A stretch of 64,000 nt of DNA from Thermomonas sp. (GCA_044226035.1 JBGAHT010000007.1:2406-66405), one strand, 5' to 3'. Positions 1,361-7,600 are shown, numbered from the stretch's first letter. Notes: a model not told the origin generated them from the sequence alone. Numbers and translations are program-made.

Positions 1361-1457
1361 GGCGCCTCCCCAAGCGTGTCCGGTTTTTTGCCGAAGTTTC
1401 GCATAGCTCCGTCACTGCCGGCATTTCGCCGGGGGGTCACTAAAAGGTGGGGAGACC
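1361..1457. promoter_or_regulatory. Divergent intergenic region between the ECF sigma-kinase operon and the adhesin gene
   Basis: 97-bp gap between divergently oriented genes. A GGTGGGGAG RBS-like sequence precedes the ATG at 1458. No promoter motif was positively identified. Confidence 0.3.
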
Positions 1458-2876
1458 ATGAACAAGAATGCGAATCGTCTACATGCGTTGCCGGCCGTAT
1501 CGATACTGGTCCTGGGGTTGCTGGCGGCGTTGCCCGCGCCGGCGTTCGCTGCCGATCCGAGGTGCCTGGATGCGGATGGCATGGCGATCGTGCCCGAACC
1601 CGGCACCGACCAGGGCAGCGAAGGCGGCACGGACAACGCGACCTGCAAGGGCACTGCCAGCGCCTATGGACAGCAGAACAACGCCAGCGCCGAATACAGC
1701 AGCGCCTTCGGTTACCACAACACCGCTTATGGCGAGTACGGCAATGCCTTCGGGCAGTACAACGTTGCCGCCGGCTTCAACAGCAATGCCTTCGGTTACG
1801 GTAACGAGTCCTTCGGCTTCAACGGCAGCGCTTTTGGCTTCATGAACTCGGCTCTGGGCGAGAACAGCAGCGTATTCGGCTACAGAAGCACGGCCAGCGG
1901 CAAAGACAGCAGCGTGTTCGGACGCAGCAGCGAAGCCCAGGGGGTTGCCAGCAGCGCCCTTGGCTATTACGCAAAGGCACTGAACATCGGCAGCACGGCC
2001 ATCGGTTATCGGGCGGTCGCCGATCGCGACTACGCGGTCTCGGTGGGTGCGGCCGGCGCGGAACACCAGATCATCCACCTGGCCGACGGCACCGAGGATT
2101 TCGATGCCGTGAACGTGCGTCAAATGAAGATGCTGGCGAACTGGTTCGGTGGCGGCGCAAGCTTCGATCACGGGGTCTTCATCGCGCCGAATTTCACGAT
2201 CCAGGGCGCCAACTACAACTCGGTGGCGGCGGCATTCGCGGCAGTGGACACCAAGTTGACGGCGCTTGGCACCGGCACCGGCACCGGTCCGGCAGGCCCG
2301 CGGGGCCCCGCAGGACCTCCGGGCCCCGCAGGGCCGCAAGGCCCGGCCGGCGCTGACGGCGCGGGCGGTAACGCGCTGGCGGTGACGTACGACGATGCCG
2401 GCCACGCCAGCATCACCCTTGCAGGAGCAGATGGCGACGGCGGCAACGAAGGCACCCAGGTCAAGAATGTCGCGGATGGCACCGATCCGATGGATGCGGT
2501 GAACAAGCGGCAAATGGATGCCGGCGACGCGACGACGCTGGCTTCGGCAAATGCCTACACCGACCAGCAGTTCGCGGCCTGGAACGACAGCTTCACCCAG
2601 TACCAACAGGGTGTGGAGCGTCGCTTCGCACAAACCGACCGGCGCATCGACCAGGTCGGGGCAATGTCCAGCGCGATGACGCACATGGCGGTGAATGCCG
2701 CCAATGGCAGCGGCGCCAAGGGTCGCATCGCGATCGGCGTGGGATTGCAGGGCGGGGAGGGCGCGGTGTCGATCGGTTACGGCAAACGCGTCGGTACGCG
2801 TGGTTCGTTCACGCTCGGCGCGGCGTTCGGGGATGGCGAGAACAGCGTCGGCGCGGGCTTCGGCCTCGACCTGTAA
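1458..2876 (+). CDS. Trimeric autotransporter adhesin (YadA/Hia family) with collagen-like GXY triple-helix repeat and C-terminal YadA anchor
   Basis: Signal peptide (LAALPAPAFA). Repeated head motifs (SAFGYHNTAYGEYGNAFGQYNVAAGFNSNAFGY...). Neck motif DAVNVRQMKML. Collagen-like tract GPAGPRGPAGPPGPAGPQGPAGADG. A second DAVNKRQM neck. C-terminal beta-barrel anchor ...GRIAIGVGLQGGEGAVSIGYGKRVGTRGSFTLGAAFGDGENSVGAGFGLDL. GC is lower than flanking DNA. Confidence 0.8.
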   Translation: MNKNANRLHALPAVSILVLGLLAALPAPAFAADPRCLDADGMAIVPEPGTDQGSEGGTDNATCKGTASAYGQQNNASAEYSSAFGYHNTAYGEYGNAFGQYNVAAGFNSNAFGYGNESFGFNGSAFGFMNSALGENSSVFGYRSTASGKDSSVFGRSSEAQGVASSALGYYAKALNIGSTAIGYRAVADRDYAVSVGAAGAEHQIIHLADGTEDFDAVNVRQMKMLANWFGGGASFDHGVFIAPNFTIQGANYNSVAAAFAAVDTKLTALGTGTGTGPAGPRGPAGPPGPAGPQGPAGADGAGGNALAVTYDDAGHASITLAGADGDGGNEGTQVKNVADGTDPMDAVNKRQMDAGDATTLASANAYTDQQFAAWNDSFTQYQQGVERRFAQTDRRIDQVGAMSSAMTHMAVNAANGSGAKGRIAIGVGLQGGEGAVSIGYGKRVGTRGSFTLGAAFGDGENSVGAGFGLDL

Positions 2877-2932
2877 TCCGTCATCCGGACAGGTAAGCCG
2901 GACGGGGCCGGCAGCGGCCCCGTCTTGTACGC

Positions 2933-4544: not shown

Positions 4545-4659
4545 GGTCGTTCCTCCTTGCCGGGCTGCGGCTGGAAGCCGCAAGGGATGGCCCTGCATCC
4601 GGGGAATCGAAAGAATGGTCGGGAAGCGGACATGTCGCGTCGTGCACGACCGCCGGGCG

Positions 4660-7600
4660 TCACTTTTCCTTGCGCCAGTTCACCGATGCGCGGTTCTCCA
4701 CCGTGCTCGATTCGATCTGGATGTCGAAGCCCTTGCGCAGCAGGTACTTCAGCATCATCACCTGGCCGGTGCCGAGCAGGGACACGCCGTAGCCGACGTA
4801 CAACTTCGGCGACAGGTACTTGCCGACGCTGAGCACGTCGCTGCCGAGCGCGCGCGATTGGGTGACGCCGGCGTCGTCCAGGCCCAGGCGCGCGCCCAGC
4901 CTGGAGGCGATCAGCCCGGTGCCGGCGTTGAGCGCGGATTTCGCCGCGCCCAGCTGGCGCGCCTCGTTGCTGCTGAGGCTGTCGAGCGGGCGGCCGAGCG
5001 CGAGGTAGGACAGCGCCTCGGATTCGCTCCTGGCCGGATCCGAATACACCGTCGCGCGCGGCGCCGACGCGCGGCCCTCGACCTTGATCCCGGCGGTGAC
5101 ATCGCCGACCACGCGTTCGGCGCGCACGTCGAGGATCGGATCGCCGACCGGCGTGTTCGACCACAGCAGCCGCCCGCGGGTGATGTCGAGCTTCTGCCCA
5201 TAGGCGGTGTAGCGCCCGGCCACGTCGAGCGCGCCGGTTCCGCGCATCTCGCGCCCGGGCACCGCGCGCACGCGCAGGTTGCCGCCGAGCGTGCCGACCA
5301 GGCCGAAGCCCTTGATGTTGACGTCCTCGCCCATCGCCAGCGCGAGGTCGAGGTCGAGCCGGTTCGGCGCCTCGCGCTTGGGGTCGACCGGATCGAGCAC
5401 CACCACGTCTTCCGATGCGGAAACGCCTTCGTCCAGCCGTTCGAGGTTGATGTCGGCTTCGGGGATGGTGACGGTCCCGCTCACCTGCAGCGGATCGCCG
5501 GCGCGGTAGCGCACCACCACGTCCGGGTTCGCCACCGCGCGCAGTTGCCGCGTTTCCGCGACCAGCACGTTCTCGCCGCGCAGGTTCAGCACCAGCGGCG
5601 TGTCCTGGTTCCTCCAGCCCAGGGTGCCGTCGACGTTCAGCACGCCGTCGCCGGAACGCACGCGGCCGACGATGCGCGCGTTGCCGTCGGGCTGCGCCTG
5701 CATGCGCAGGTCGCCCTCGTGCAACGCGATGCCGAGCGAGGGCAGTTCGGTGGCGAAATCCTGCAGGTGGCCCTCGCCGCCGACCACCGGCGCGGCGCGG
5801 GTGCCGGCGAGGCGCAGGTCGGCGTCGAGTTTGCCGGTGGGCTCGACGATGTCCGGCGAGAACAGTTCCATCCACGTCAGCGCATCGGTGCTCACCTTCA
5901 CCTCGCCCGACAGCGGCGCGAACGCGTCCCAGCCGGTGGCGAGGTGCGCGTCGATGCGCCCGTCGTCGTTGAAGCGCGTGCCCAGCTTCGCGGAAACGCG
6001 CTGCGGGTCGAACTCGGCGTCGAGCGCCAGCTCGTCGTAGGAGACGAAGTCGCGGCGCGCGCGCGCGCTGTTGCGCAGCCCGCCGTGCGCCGAGGCCAGC
6101 GTCGCGTGGCCGCGCCAGGCATTGCCGGCGGGAACCACGCGCGCATCCAGCGCGATTTCGCCGTCGAGCAGCCACGGCCGGCCGTCCTCGCGTTCGGGCA
6201 GGTAGGGAATCGACAGCGCCAGCGGCAAGGCTTCGCCGCGCACGTTCAAGCCACGCCGCGGCCAGTCCGCGTCCGCGCACAGGCTTCCGCCCGCGTTCGA
6301 GGCCAGGCAGGAACGCGACAGCACGCCGCTCGCGCCATCCCACGACCAGCGCGTCGGCTGCTGCAACGCCCAGGCCGCGCCTTTCGCCGGATCGAAGCGC
6401 AGCGCCGCCAGCGTGCCCTGCCAGCGCGCGCCTTGCCTGGTCGCGTCGCCGTCCAGCGCGATCGCGCCGAGGTCGCCGCGCGCGTCCGCGTCGAAGCGCA
6501 GGCGTTCGACCGCGCCGCGCAGGTTCGCGCGCAGGTCGGTGAAGGGCAGGCCCAGCTGCAGGCCCTGCGCGTCGATCGCGAGCGAACCGTCGCCGCTGCG
6601 CCATGGCAGGCGTCCCCTGGCGGCGATATGCCGCGCGAGGTAGTCGCCGAACGCGACATCGTCGCCGTTCATGTCGATCGCGACATCCGGCGCGTCGCGC
6701 GCGCCGCGCAACTGCAGCGTGCCGCGCAGCGTGCCGCGCCCGCCGGGAAGCAGGTCGTCGAGTTGCAGCGGCGCGAAGTTCGCATCGACCTGCATCGCCG
6801 CCGCGATGCGCCCCTTCGCGTCGATCCGGCTGCGGCCCAGCGCCAGCGCGACATCGCCGGAATACGCATCGCCATCGACATCCAGCGTCGCGCGGCCGGA
6901 CAGCGCGCGCTTGCGCAGCGTGCCGCCGAGTTGCCGCGCATCGAGGTGCGCGAGCAGGGAACCGTCGCCGCGCACCTGGCCGTCGCCCTGCAGCTTGCCG
7001 TCGATCGCGCCGGGCCAGTCGGGCGCGAAATAACCGGGGTCGAAACCGGCGAGCGTGGCCTCGGCCTTCCACGCGAGGTTCGGATTCCACGCCAGCGTGC
7101 CGGTCGCGTCGAGCCGGCCCTGCGGCATCGTCGCGCGCAGCGCGCGGATGCGCACGCCGTCGCGGTCGCCGATGCCGTCCAGGCGCACGTCCGCGCGCTC
7201 GTTGCCGCGCTGCAATCGCGCGGTGCCGATCGCCGCCCACAATTCCGGTTTGCCGGCGAGGCCGAAATCCGCGTCGCCGCGCACCTGCGCCTTGCCGTCG
7301 GCGCCGCGCCATTGCAGGCCGCGCGCGTTCACCGCGAACTTGAGCGCGGCCTTTTCCGCATCGCGCAGGTCGGCATAACCGTTCGCGGTGACGCGCCCGT
7401 CGAAAACGTCCAGCACCAGCGGCTGCGCCCGCAGCACGCGGTCCTGCAACGAGAGTTTCGAGGGCTGCAGCGTGGCGTGGAAGTCGCCCCGCGACACCGT
7501 CCCGCGCAGGTTCGCGTTGCCGCCGTTGCCGTCGGCGACCAGGTCGAACGCGAGCGGGATCGAGGCTTCGCCGCTGCCGGCGAGCAGCGACGGATCCAGC

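Follow-up and report, generated by a model that had tools for sequence, protein, structure and literature searches.

A young single-gene cassette, very probably of horizontal origin, at the 3' end of tamB in Thermomonas sp., and its predicted secreted product

The 3' end of tamB in Thermomonas sp. has very probably undergone a recent horizontal insertion. In the stretch of 64,000 nucleotides that was analysed (the window), one gene for a predicted secreted protein of 463 aa from an unannotated family, here termed X463, is enclosed by two copies of the tamB terminus. We propose that, not long ago, recombination in a Thermomonas-like population placed a single-gene cassette of ~1.73 kb at the extreme 3' end of tamB. 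The cassette would have brought a substitute tamB terminus, a spacer that bears a strong RBS, the 463-aa gene, and a tail with the decayed remains of an old tamB-like sequence. The account that combines the insertion, a recombination route and a membrane-active function is the best overall explanation of the locus, at somewhat better than an even chance. The locus is laid out as follows.

794..1360, (-) strand: ECF sigma factor gene (sigECF; Sigma70_ECF, 2.2e-40), found 71-76 nt after the tamB stop in the relatives L107 and L006
1458..2876, (+) strand: trimeric autotransporter adhesin of 472 aa with collagen-like GPAGP repeats and YadA domains
2901..2924, (-) strand: G+C hairpin of 10 bp lying between the stop codons of the orphan and the adhesin gene (RNA fold)
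2933..3031, (-) strand: orphan tamB terminus, 32 codons and TAG, assigned from the repeat, diversity and identity to L107
3032..3152, (-) strand: cassette tail without an ORF, in which 3032-3094 reads as a decayed, internally deleted tamB-like remnant
3153..4544, (-) strand: cassette gene for the 463-aa protein
4545..4659, (-) strand: spacer of 115 nt between tamB and the cassette gene
4660..4758, (-) strand: tamB-attached 99-nt copy, last 32 codons and TGA, inside the low-diversity tract
4660..8574, (-) strand: intact tamB, 1304 aa (Pfam TamB, E=2.8e-61)

The duplication of the tamB terminus claimed in an earlier note on this DNA is real, with its coordinates corrected. The final 99 nt of the gene, stop codon included (4660-4758), are repeated at 2933-3031 with 92/99 identical positions and a spacing of 1727 nt, and tblastn found no third copy in the 64-kb window. 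Both copies encode MMLKYLLRKGFDIQIESSTVENRASVNWRKEK; the five coding differences between them are all synonymous (chance about 0.001-0.002), and the stop codon is TGA in the tamB-attached copy and TAG in the orphan. The orphan is part of a longer, decayed tamB fragment with its last 99 nt nearly intact, because the 42 nt upstream of it agree with tamB in register at 25/42 positions, a level reached by 0.02% of the 42-mers of the window, and because an in-frame GAAKAAL/GAAKSAL match is present at 3075-3094 with an apparent deletion of ~130 nt. Among real tamB genes of different genera, the same 42 nt are 33-42/42 identical. The orphan 99 nt are probably the displaced original end of the resident tamB, and the attached copy probably arrived together with the cassette. 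With variable population sites at 2963, 2908 and 2894, the diversity of the orphan region resembles that of the old flank, and the change at 2963, which is specific to the orphan, is still polymorphic in the population. The orphan is identical to the tamB end of L107 at 96/99 positions, the states shared with L107 being also the family consensus, and the assignment of the native copy depends on few SNPs. The hairpin that follows the orphan (-34.9 kcal/mol, z = -3.1; 0/200 shuffles fold as well) is likely a bidirectional terminator.

As had been claimed, exactly one gene of lower GC (3153-4544; GC 62.6%, GC3 0.806) lies between the two copies, with an AAGGAGG RBS at 4552-4558, 7 nt ahead of its ATG. 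GC and GC3 are 65.5% and 0.797 in the adhesin gene and 72.7% and 0.916 in tamB, and GC3 is 0.889 in sigECF. The composition marks the cassette gene as foreign, because its GC3 is below that of the flanks while the GC3 of homologues in three other hosts resembles that of the host. The spacer contains neither a terminator-like nor a sigma-70-like site on the (-) strand, which makes read-through from tamAB into the cassette gene plausible; no significant similarity was found between the spacer and the intergenic region of L006. Expression of the gene would probably depend on this read-through and, for translation, on its own RBS, and the product would be exported by Sec. No immunity gene adjoins it, and the 121 nt downstream, being free of ORFs, leave no room for one. 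The features of the protein are listed below.

3351..3947, (-) strand: conserved core domain, residues ~200-398, a predicted C2-like beta-sandwich
3489..3605, (-) strand: apolar Gly/Ala small-xxx-small helical hairpin, residues 314-352 (AF2 model)
3990..4379, (-) strand: N-terminal beta-sandwich domain, residues ~56-185 (AF2 model)
4375..4489, (-) strand: tandem 60-nt (20-aa) repeat, disordered N-terminal linker (repeat search and alignment)
4473..4544, (-) strand: signal peptide codons, residues 1-24, cleavage between ASA and Q (read by eye from sequence and alignment)

The signal peptide, the tandem 20-aa repeat and the Gly/Ala-zipper segment described earlier were all recovered, and the count of four Cys holds for the mature protein, the full 463 aa having five. 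A lipobox would also be compatible with LVAC at residues 12-15, a motif that is not conserved among the homologues. The 20-aa repeat covers residues 20-39/40-59 (DNA 4375-4429 and 4435-4489, 76% identical) and is absent from the homologues; pLDDT is <50 over residues 1-53. The N-terminal beta-sandwich domain also occurs alone, joined to other C-termini. Near-invariant in the core are DE (226-227), RLP, YYE, P..W.G, EQD (303-305), D360 and G363, and the hairpin is inserted between EQDN and P..T.G.D. Its helices, 313-329 and 333-347, are modelled with pLDDT of 86-94. Residues 314-359 constitute 46 uncharged residues with small-xxx-small ladders from 327, 331, 335 and 339 and a Kyte-Doolittle 19-residue maximum of 1.95.

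The statement that no known family could be recognised also holds: no housekeeping family matched the 463-aa protein, which gave nothing in Pfam or NCBIfam at E<0.1, nothing in PHROGs, PADLOC or PDB sequences, and 0 matches at E<10 in a PDB sequence profile search. Among the 5.8 billion searched, no more than 15 clusters at 90% identity were found to hold full-length relatives, and an exhaustive HMM search of the core domain yielded about 160 representatives without annotation, among them fusions to ricin-B, hemopexin or PAN domains. The family is rare, with strictly conserved motifs and confident structure models. Across ~94 divergent core domains D, E, E-Q-D, D, Y-Y, W, R and N are near-invariant, and no His, Ser or Cys is conserved. 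An uncharged segment of 38-46 residues occurs in every full-length subfamily member (14/14 homologues, 0-3 charges); in the more distant superfamily members the hairpin has a charged or amphipathic character, and the apolar zipper is thus specific to the subfamily. Homologue neighbourhoods in Nannocystaceae and other hosts have no shared gene and no immunity gene, and none lies beside tamB. We also note that a TAM accessory or housekeeping periplasmic protein was rejected as a candidate, given the absence of tamAB synteny in 80 loci and the location of homologues elsewhere away from tamB.

In PDB structure searches, the only consistent fold resemblance is to lipid-binding C2 domains, a class that includes cPLA2 C2, synaptotagmin C2A/B and perforin C2. 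Pfam C2 (PF00168) gave no sequence match at E<0.1, the PDB structure matches included no pore-former fold (aerolysin, MACPF/CDC, actinoporin, Cyt, colicin), and no Pfam Gly-zipper model or known toxin domain matched. Judging from the models, our best guess, a tentative one held at less than even odds, is a secreted membrane-targeting protein with the role of a membrane-active toxin. The toxin- or bacteriocin-like reading of the earlier note remains tentative: the predicted fold (C2-like sandwich and apolar hairpin) and the lectin fusions of the relatives are compatible with it, and the immunity gene and known pore-former fold that would go with it are missing.

The zipper segments of VacA, TspA and the Tse4/Ssp6-type toxins insert into membranes and form ion-conducting assemblies. 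The 463-aa protein shares with the glycine-zipper toxins (VacA channel segment; EsxX/TspA of T7SS; Tse4/Ssp6-type of T6SS) a long uncharged segment with G/A/S at every fourth residue, here predicted as two helices. A report on EsxX describes glycine-zipper segments as the active part of known membrane-depolarising toxins, segments that insert into membranes and form ion-conducting assemblies (PMC12744356). These toxins are T5/T6/T7-delivered, mostly helical, small and encoded beside immunity genes, in contrast to the 463-aa protein, in which the zipper is part of a two-sandwich, predicted Sec-secreted protein with neither an immunity gene nor a Gly-zipper Pfam match.

It is unlikely, in our estimate, that the 463-aa protein is instead a secreted enzyme or a ligand/carbohydrate binder, not membrane-active, with the hairpin as a structural lid. 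The near-invariant residues of the ~94 core domains do look more like a catalytic or binding site than like a pore-former, and the strictly invariant D/E/Q/D set could serve an enzyme or a ligand site just as well; nevertheless, no enzyme fold or family is similar, and the set lacks a conserved His, Ser or Cys. Fusions to ricin-B (CBM13-type) are typical of glycoside hydrolases too, but the sole consistent fold likeness is to C2 domains that bind lipid. The hairpin is not apolar in the distant members, a point in favour of this reading, while the conserved uncharged segment of 38-46 residues would be hard to explain in a soluble enzyme.

Comparison with relatives supports the claimed insertion or replacement by recombination at the tamB 3' end. 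The closest relatives, L107 and L006, whose tamB is ~96% (counting substitutions alone) and 86% identical in nucleotides, respectively, lack both the orphan and the 463-aa gene, and conservation of the arrangement in synteny is thereby contradicted. L107 has an empty site, in which the TAG of tamB is followed by the sigECF ATG 71 nt on, and so has L006, in which tamB runs straight into the sigma gene with a 76-nt spacer. The tamB-end duplication occurs in 0/80 Lysobacteraceae tamB loci, the cassette gene is absent downstream of tamB in the 80 loci, and no other cargo was found at the tamB end among the Lysobacteraceae loci examined. All contigs read for the species carry the tamB-cassette-orphan arrangement. 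In 14 population contigs, the tract 3032-4938 has 5 variable sites in 1907 nt (2.6/kb), compared with 28 in 1062 nt of tamB (26/kb; p = 7e-9) and 19 in 1419 nt of the adhesin gene (13/kb; p = 5e-4). The interval 4309-4938 has 0 variable sites in the 14 sequences, and the tract reaches ~180 nt past the repeat into tamB. From this low diversity, the cassette is young. The GC3 deficit and the ten-fold diversity drop over 3032-4938 together are independent support for a recent foreign origin.

The adhesin gene is a separate and older feature outside the repeat-bounded cassette, because it has normal diversity and sits beside the sigma/kinase module in L113/L114, where its orthologue adjoins the orthologous sigECF/kinase module. 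The earlier note had counted it in the inserted islet; its lower GC is confirmed (GC3 0.797), and its inclusion is contradicted by the diversity of 13/kb and the synteny in L113/L114. Its YadA_stalk (3.2e-15) and YadA_head (1.2e-6) matches are above the Pfam cut-offs, YadA_anchor (1.2e-3; 19.3 bits) falls just under the cut-off of 22.7, and it has 217 YadA-like homologues. The gene is absent from L107 and L006.

The most economical route that we infer is homologous recombination with DNA of a relative that already bore the tamB-cassette-orphan arrangement. One crossover would lie inside tamB, upstream of ~4939, and the second near 3031, between the decayed orphan of the donor and the tamB terminus of the recipient. 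Because the terminus is almost invariant in DNA across the family, it can provide the homology arm for either crossover. Divergence from L107 does not rise over the last 280 nt of tamB, and the left crossover is thus defined by the diversity drop alone. Searches gave no donor that has a close homologue; identity to the next best relative is 44%. The last 99 nt of the resident tamB would have been pushed downstream as the orphan, with the resident hairpin and the adhesin gene still behind it, and tamB would have kept its full reading frame, a functional end having come with the incoming DNA.

Improbable, on balance, is a cassette that is the remnant of a site-specific integrative element, or was trans-mobilised as one, with an att site mimicking the tamB 3' end. 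The locus shares with islands at the 3' ends of tRNA/tmRNA or protein genes the flanking direct repeats around a cargo, the reconstituted intact target, the displaced original end at the far side, the empty sites (L107 and L006) and the atypical composition, and its compact 1727-nt unit with a single ORF is gene-cassette-like. However, the surroundings of the cassette contain no integrase, transposase, tRNA or Rfam element, the sole ORF between the repeats has no recombinase family match, and the flanks of 10 population loci contain no recombinase. The 0 other Lysobacteraceae tamB loci with the repeat or other cargo, the extension of the low-diversity tract about 180 nt beyond the repeat and the reach of the decayed tamB sequence of the tail well past a core att site also stand against such an element. 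Decayed and fresh tamB sequence are combined in the distal repeat, and this mosaic favours homologous exchange over site-specific integration. To our knowledge, the tamB terminus has not been described as an insertion site.

Very improbable is an arrangement that is ancestral or duplicated in situ and was lost by deletion in relatives, with no horizontal transfer. The adhesin-sigma-kinase adjacency is old, since L113/L114 have it too, so L107 and L006 may have lost the adhesin, and the decay of the 63-nt tamB-like tail reveals an old duplication event of some kind. Yet two independent precise losses, in L107 and L006, would be needed, the GC3 of the cassette gene is 10 points under the flanks while homologues elsewhere are host-like, and the diversity of the gene is ten-fold below both flanks. 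In situ, the near-intact 99 nt could be as old as the decayed tail only through gene conversion, after which no difference between orphan and attached copy would be expected; there are 7 differences.

It is scarcely credible that the orphan is a functional mini-gene for a 32-residue peptide equal to the C-terminal strands of TamB that modulates TamA (the final strand of E. coli TamB is paired with strand 1 of TamA; PMC12800296), for all its 5/5 synonymous differences, sharp shift in divergence exactly at its ATG, GAGGA 5 nt upstream and annotation by gene callers, since the peptide has no signal sequence and so could not reach TamA, a synonymous-only pattern is expected if the copies diverged inside functional tamB of different lineages, a crossover point would give the sharp boundary, and the hairpin-terminated read-through context bears no sign of translation.

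Returning to the membrane-active reading of the product, a targeting domain joined to a membrane-attack domain is the usual architecture of lectin-fused secreted cytolysins. The fusions of distant core-domain relatives to ricin-B, hemopexin and PAN domains are of the same kind as in ricin-B-fused aerolysin-type and MACPF-type cytolysins, whereas the 463-aa protein itself has no lectin domain and no fold or sequence likeness to aerolysin, MACPF/CDC, actinoporin, Cyt or colicin (PDB). In the proposed action, the C2-like sandwich, whose invariant acidic residues D226/E227, E303/D305 and D360 may cluster, would dock on a lipid surface, possibly with Ca2+, and the docked protein would then free the 2 x 17-residue apolar Gly/Ala-zipper hairpin into the bilayer, by which a foreign cell may be permeabilised or perturbed.

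The tamA-tamB region of the window, whose G+C content is about 70%, shares 86% DNA identity with that of L006, a Thermomonas sp. metagenome-assembled genome (MAG), and other Lysobacteraceae are more distant. The features around the 3' end of tamB are arranged as follows.

Features of the locus, in minus-strand order
tamA, then tamB (4660-8574), minus strand
Spacer of 115 nt between tamB and the cassette gene, minus strand
3153-4544, minus strand: ORF of the 463-aa protein (cassette gene)
Tail of 121 nt between the 463-aa ORF and the orphan, minus strand
2933-3031, minus strand: orphan tamB end, 99 nt
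2901-2924: strong G+C hairpin, after the orphan
1458-2876, plus strand: trimeric autotransporter adhesin gene, convergent
794-1360, minus strand: extracytoplasmic function (ECF) sigma factor gene, beyond the adhesin gene
Ser/Thr kinase-TPR gene, neighbour of the sigma factor gene, beyond the adhesin gene

As the earlier note described, a single ORF lies between the two tamB ends; it has a strong ribosome-binding site and signal peptide codons, and its product carries a 20-aa tandem repeat, four cysteines in the mature part and an uncharged Gly/Ala segment. No terminator is predicted after tamB, and a scan for sigma-70-like promoters, uninformative in a 70% GC genome, found none for the 463-aa gene. 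Neither an Rfam family nor a tRNA was found near the insertion site. Residues 12-15 of the signal peptide, LVAC (window 4500-4511), also match a lipobox that is not conserved in the homologues; these carry Ala-x-Ala sites, so the type of export is ambiguous for the window copy.

The duplication of the tamB end, put at ~115 bp by the earlier note, is real and measures 99 nt. The copy attached to the intact gene (4660-4758) and the orphan (2933-3031) are identical at 92 of 99 positions. Their 32 encoded residues are the same, with all five differences in the coding part synonymous, and the stop codons differ; the window holds no third copy. Upstream of the orphan ATGATG the similarity to tamB falls abruptly to 25/42, a value far above chance that only 0.02% of the 42-mers in the window reach, and a further in-frame match (GAAKAAL/GAAKSAL) implies that this stretch is an old, internally deleted tamB fragment. 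The orphan thus joins two unlike parts in a mosaic, this decayed tamB-like stretch and the nearly intact 99 nt. GAGGA (3036-3040) lies 5 nt before the orphan ATG, and gene callers annotate the 32-aa ORF; its functional translation is unlikely, judging from its sequence, because it is without a signal peptide.

The last ~141 nt of tamB (window 4660-4800; tamB ends of the loci L006-L085) are almost invariant in DNA across the genera of Lysobacteraceae, with identities of 33-42/42 and 78-92/99 that lie far above those of the rest of the gene. The probable reason is that this part encodes the C-terminal strands folding inside the TamA barrel, of which the final one pairs with TamA strand 1; the conservation makes the tamB terminus an unusually good homology anchor.

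The insertion of the 463-aa cassette at the tamB 3' end, as the earlier note proposed, is supported by the empty sites of two relatives, from both of which the cassette is absent. The contig L107, a long-read contig found by exact-protein look-up of the 32-aa orphan ORF, is about 96% identical in tamB when substitutions alone are counted and represents a much closer relative than L006; here tamB is followed by 71 nt and then the sigma gene. In L006 the sigma gene starts 76 nt after the tamB stop, and window 1372-4661 has no counterpart. A second tamB end was found in 0 of 80 Lysobacteraceae tamB loci, among which the region downstream of tamB is generally variable. Within the species itself, all contigs that were read, which come from several metagenomes, contain the full tamB-cassette-orphan arrangement. 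Metagenome scans for the empty-site junction and for the hairpin gave 0 matches, and residual homology between the L006 intergenic region and the sequence after each repeat copy was not significant.

The composition of the gene is also as the earlier note had it: its GC3 of 0.806 compares with 0.916 for tamB and 0.889 for the sigma factor gene, and since third positions are affected as well, the lower G+C reflects more than amino-acid composition. In three other genomes, by comparison, the GC3 of the homologue agrees with that of the neighbouring genes. The event is of an ordinary kind of insertion, and the cassette comprises 3032-4758 together with some upstream tamB sequence.

The adhesin lies outside these limits. 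This YadA-type trimeric autotransporter, which contains collagen-like repeats, is absent from L107 and L006. The earlier note drew the islet at 1400-4790 and included this gene, and its absence from L006 first led us to assume the same; the low G+C held (GC3 = 0.797), and membership of the cassette was ruled out, because the gene lies outside the repeats, shows ordinary diversity and has an orthologue beside the sigma/kinase genes in L113/L114, contigs of a relative about 76% identical. There the orthologue occupies the same divergent position, with a different gene beyond it and no tamB alongside. We treat the adhesin as a separate, older feature, which was either lost in L107 and L006 or gained in the window lineage. 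The adhesin, ECF sigma factor and Ser/Thr kinase-TPR genes recur as a module (window 701-2876, L113 3450-8467, and L114), and the sigma/kinase pair may regulate the adhesin. Indels were also seen here: one of 6 nt in the GPAGP collagen-like repeat (2282-2287) in a single haplotype (L090), and one of 1 nt in the adhesin-sigma spacer (1436) in several haplotypes. In Pseudoxanthomonas, YadA-type adhesin genes lie convergent just downstream of tamB (L038 9137-11257, L040 1968-2783); this recurrent adjacency may be functional, because TAM assembles autotransporters.

The limits of the incoming DNA are read from the diversity among 14 aligned sequences of the species.

Variable sites along the locus in 14 sequences, 99.0-99.9% identical
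tamB, 4939-6000: 28 sites in 1062 nt, 26.4/kb
Tract, 3032-4938: 5 sites in 1907 nt, 2.6/kb
Orphan, hairpin and spacer, 2877-3031: 3 sites in 155 nt, 19.4/kb
Adhesin, 1458-2876: 19 sites in 1419 nt, 13.4/kb
ECF sigma factor, 794-1360: 17 sites in 567 nt, 30.0/kb

The tract 3032-4938 is less diverse than tamB (p = 7e-9), the adhesin (p = 5e-4) and the orphan side (p = 0.018), and haplotypes that differ at many tamB and adhesin sites (e.g. L090/L096) are almost identical across the cassette gene. This indicates that the tract is younger than both flanks, owing either to recent entry or to a population sweep via recombination. The young tract takes in the attached repeat copy together with roughly a further 180 nt of tamB, and its other end lies near the orphan ATG, which suggests that the attached copy came with the incoming DNA and that the last 99 nt of the orphan are resident DNA. 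The alleles of L107 had been considered as proof of the latter. Its tamB end is identical to the orphan at 96/99 positions and to the attached copy at 93/99, with GTC, GCC, GAG and TAG states common to orphan and L107. The argument was dropped, as the family consensus has these same states and the differences of the attached copy also fit ordinary lineage divergence; the diversity boundary is the better argument, and the allele sharing is compatible with a resident origin and not decisive.

Transfer from a donor lineage would be the simplest account of the mosaic orphan. In such a lineage the cassette would already have stood at the tamB end, long enough for the displaced fragment to decay, and it would have reached the recipient by homologous recombination, with one crossover within tamB and a second between the orphan carried by the donor and the tamB terminus resident in the recipient. 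No donor of the cassette was found, and the divergence to L107 along tamB gave no signal of the left crossover. The main rival is delivery by a site-specific element. The insertion works like that of islets targeting gene 3' ends, but the cassette is without the integrase that defines them, and this rival is weakened in that the site has no recombinase, tRNA or other cargo.

That no known family is recognised in the 463-aa protein, as the earlier note stated, agrees with searches of Pfam, NCBIfam, PHROGs, PADLOC and PDB sequence profiles, none of which gave a match. Among 5.8 billion proteins it has relatives in 15 clusters (90% identity), all unnamed and at most 44% identical, Nannocystaceae MAGs included; the homologue neighbourhoods have nothing in common and none is near tamB. 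The family alignment contains the invariant motifs T..T.GDGDRDELY, RLP, DxYYEA, EQDN and P.T..D, as well as N.CG and three conserved cysteines. An exhaustive profile search yielded about 160 representatives, with 33 full-length relatives and 70 that have no more than the core (residues about 200-395) in common with the protein; the core stands alone or is fused to modules of the ricin-B lectin, hemopexin, PAN or DUF11 type. Across 94 core sequences, conservation reaches at least 80% for D-E, R.P, YY, P, G, E-Q-D, D, G, N and G. The names of the core superfamily in the 5.8-billion-protein set are solely 'hypothetical protein', and a literature search returned no paper with the sequence motifs and nothing relevant on bacterial C2-type toxins.

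Several relatives show further modules. Many distant core relatives (P0040, P0043, P0046, P0047, P0162-P0164) have a C-terminal module that contains Cys and is unannotated, 'YLG.E.D.CG ... W.C ... TNLV.V.R ... I.W.CY', with no Pfam match; in P0047 it is repeated about five times ahead of hemopexin repeats. The N-terminal sandwich opens six proteins of 420-499 aa (P0085, P0114, P0123, P0138, P0146, P0152) whose remainder matches neither the profile nor any Pfam family, which points to domain shuffling. Two distant core-only proteins have mobile or defence-like contexts: the lipoprotein P0084 (L100 7001-7819) directly follows ResIII, N6/N4 methylase and UvrD helicase genes, and P0107 (L102 7001-7594) lies in a ParA/RadC/DUF2958/Imm26 region.

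AlphaFold2 modelled the whole protein with pLDDT 81.5 and pTM 0.71, and the C-terminal 268 residues with pLDDT 88.9 and pTM 0.89. The predicted architecture is a disordered linker, an N-terminal sandwich and a second sandwich with a two-helix hairpin, whose helices (313-329 and 333-347) are predicted to emerge between EQDN and P.T..D. Comparison of the whole structure with the PDB retrieved generic sandwiches only; the C-terminal domain alone retrieved almost nothing but C2 domains, with modest Z values (cPLA2 7.7; CEP120, NEDD4, dysferlin and synaptotagmins; perforin C2 5.9). The hairpin carries no charge across 46 residues and shows a small-xxx-small ladder; every full-length homologue is just as apolar here, but the distant core-only proteins have a charged or amphipathic hairpin. 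The protein resembles C2 domains by predicted fold and glycine-zipper toxins by composition, but is a sequence member of neither. The family and its predicted fold combination are new, and the function is putative.

A membrane-active role is a possible, still tentative reading, suggested by the confidently predicted C2-like sandwich, the conserved, putatively clustered acidic residues and the conserved apolar hairpin. The protein would be made by read-through from tamAB and exported by Sec; its C2-like face would dock on a lipid surface, possibly in a Ca2+-dependent manner, and the hairpin would be released into the bilayer, permeabilising or otherwise perturbing the membrane of a competitor or prey cell. 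The lectin-type fusions in relatives fit such a targeting-plus-effector logic, whereas the locus has no immunity gene and the protein does not match known pore-former folds. It is rather unlikely that the protein is an enzyme or binding protein, for which the strictly conserved polar residues could form an active or ligand site. Improbable as a whole is the most far-reaching proposal, a new secreted membrane-attack class in which a C2-type, Ca2+-dependent lipid-docking sandwich bears its own insertable glycine-zipper hairpin, the ~160-member core superfamily is an unrecognised toxin/effector module, and the duplicated, ultra-conserved tamB terminus acts as portable homology arms.

In this clean natural case, a gene was gained at the very end of another that belongs to an essential pathway and was left undisrupted, and the empty sites, the population-level sweep signature and the mosaic scar make its recombination history readable. 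Were the far-reaching proposal true, a single-gene cassette would spread among Lysobacteraceae by plain homologous recombination, without a recombinase of its own. If the function holds, this unannotated protein family has a fold combination absent from solved structures. The membrane biology of eukaryotes counts C2 domains among its hallmarks, and secreted C2 proteins of bacterial origin with an insertion hairpin of their own would then be new. Lysobacteraceae and Nannocystaceae are known for antagonistic lifestyles, and the patchy occurrence of the family in both would fit interbacterial or anti-eukaryote antagonism.
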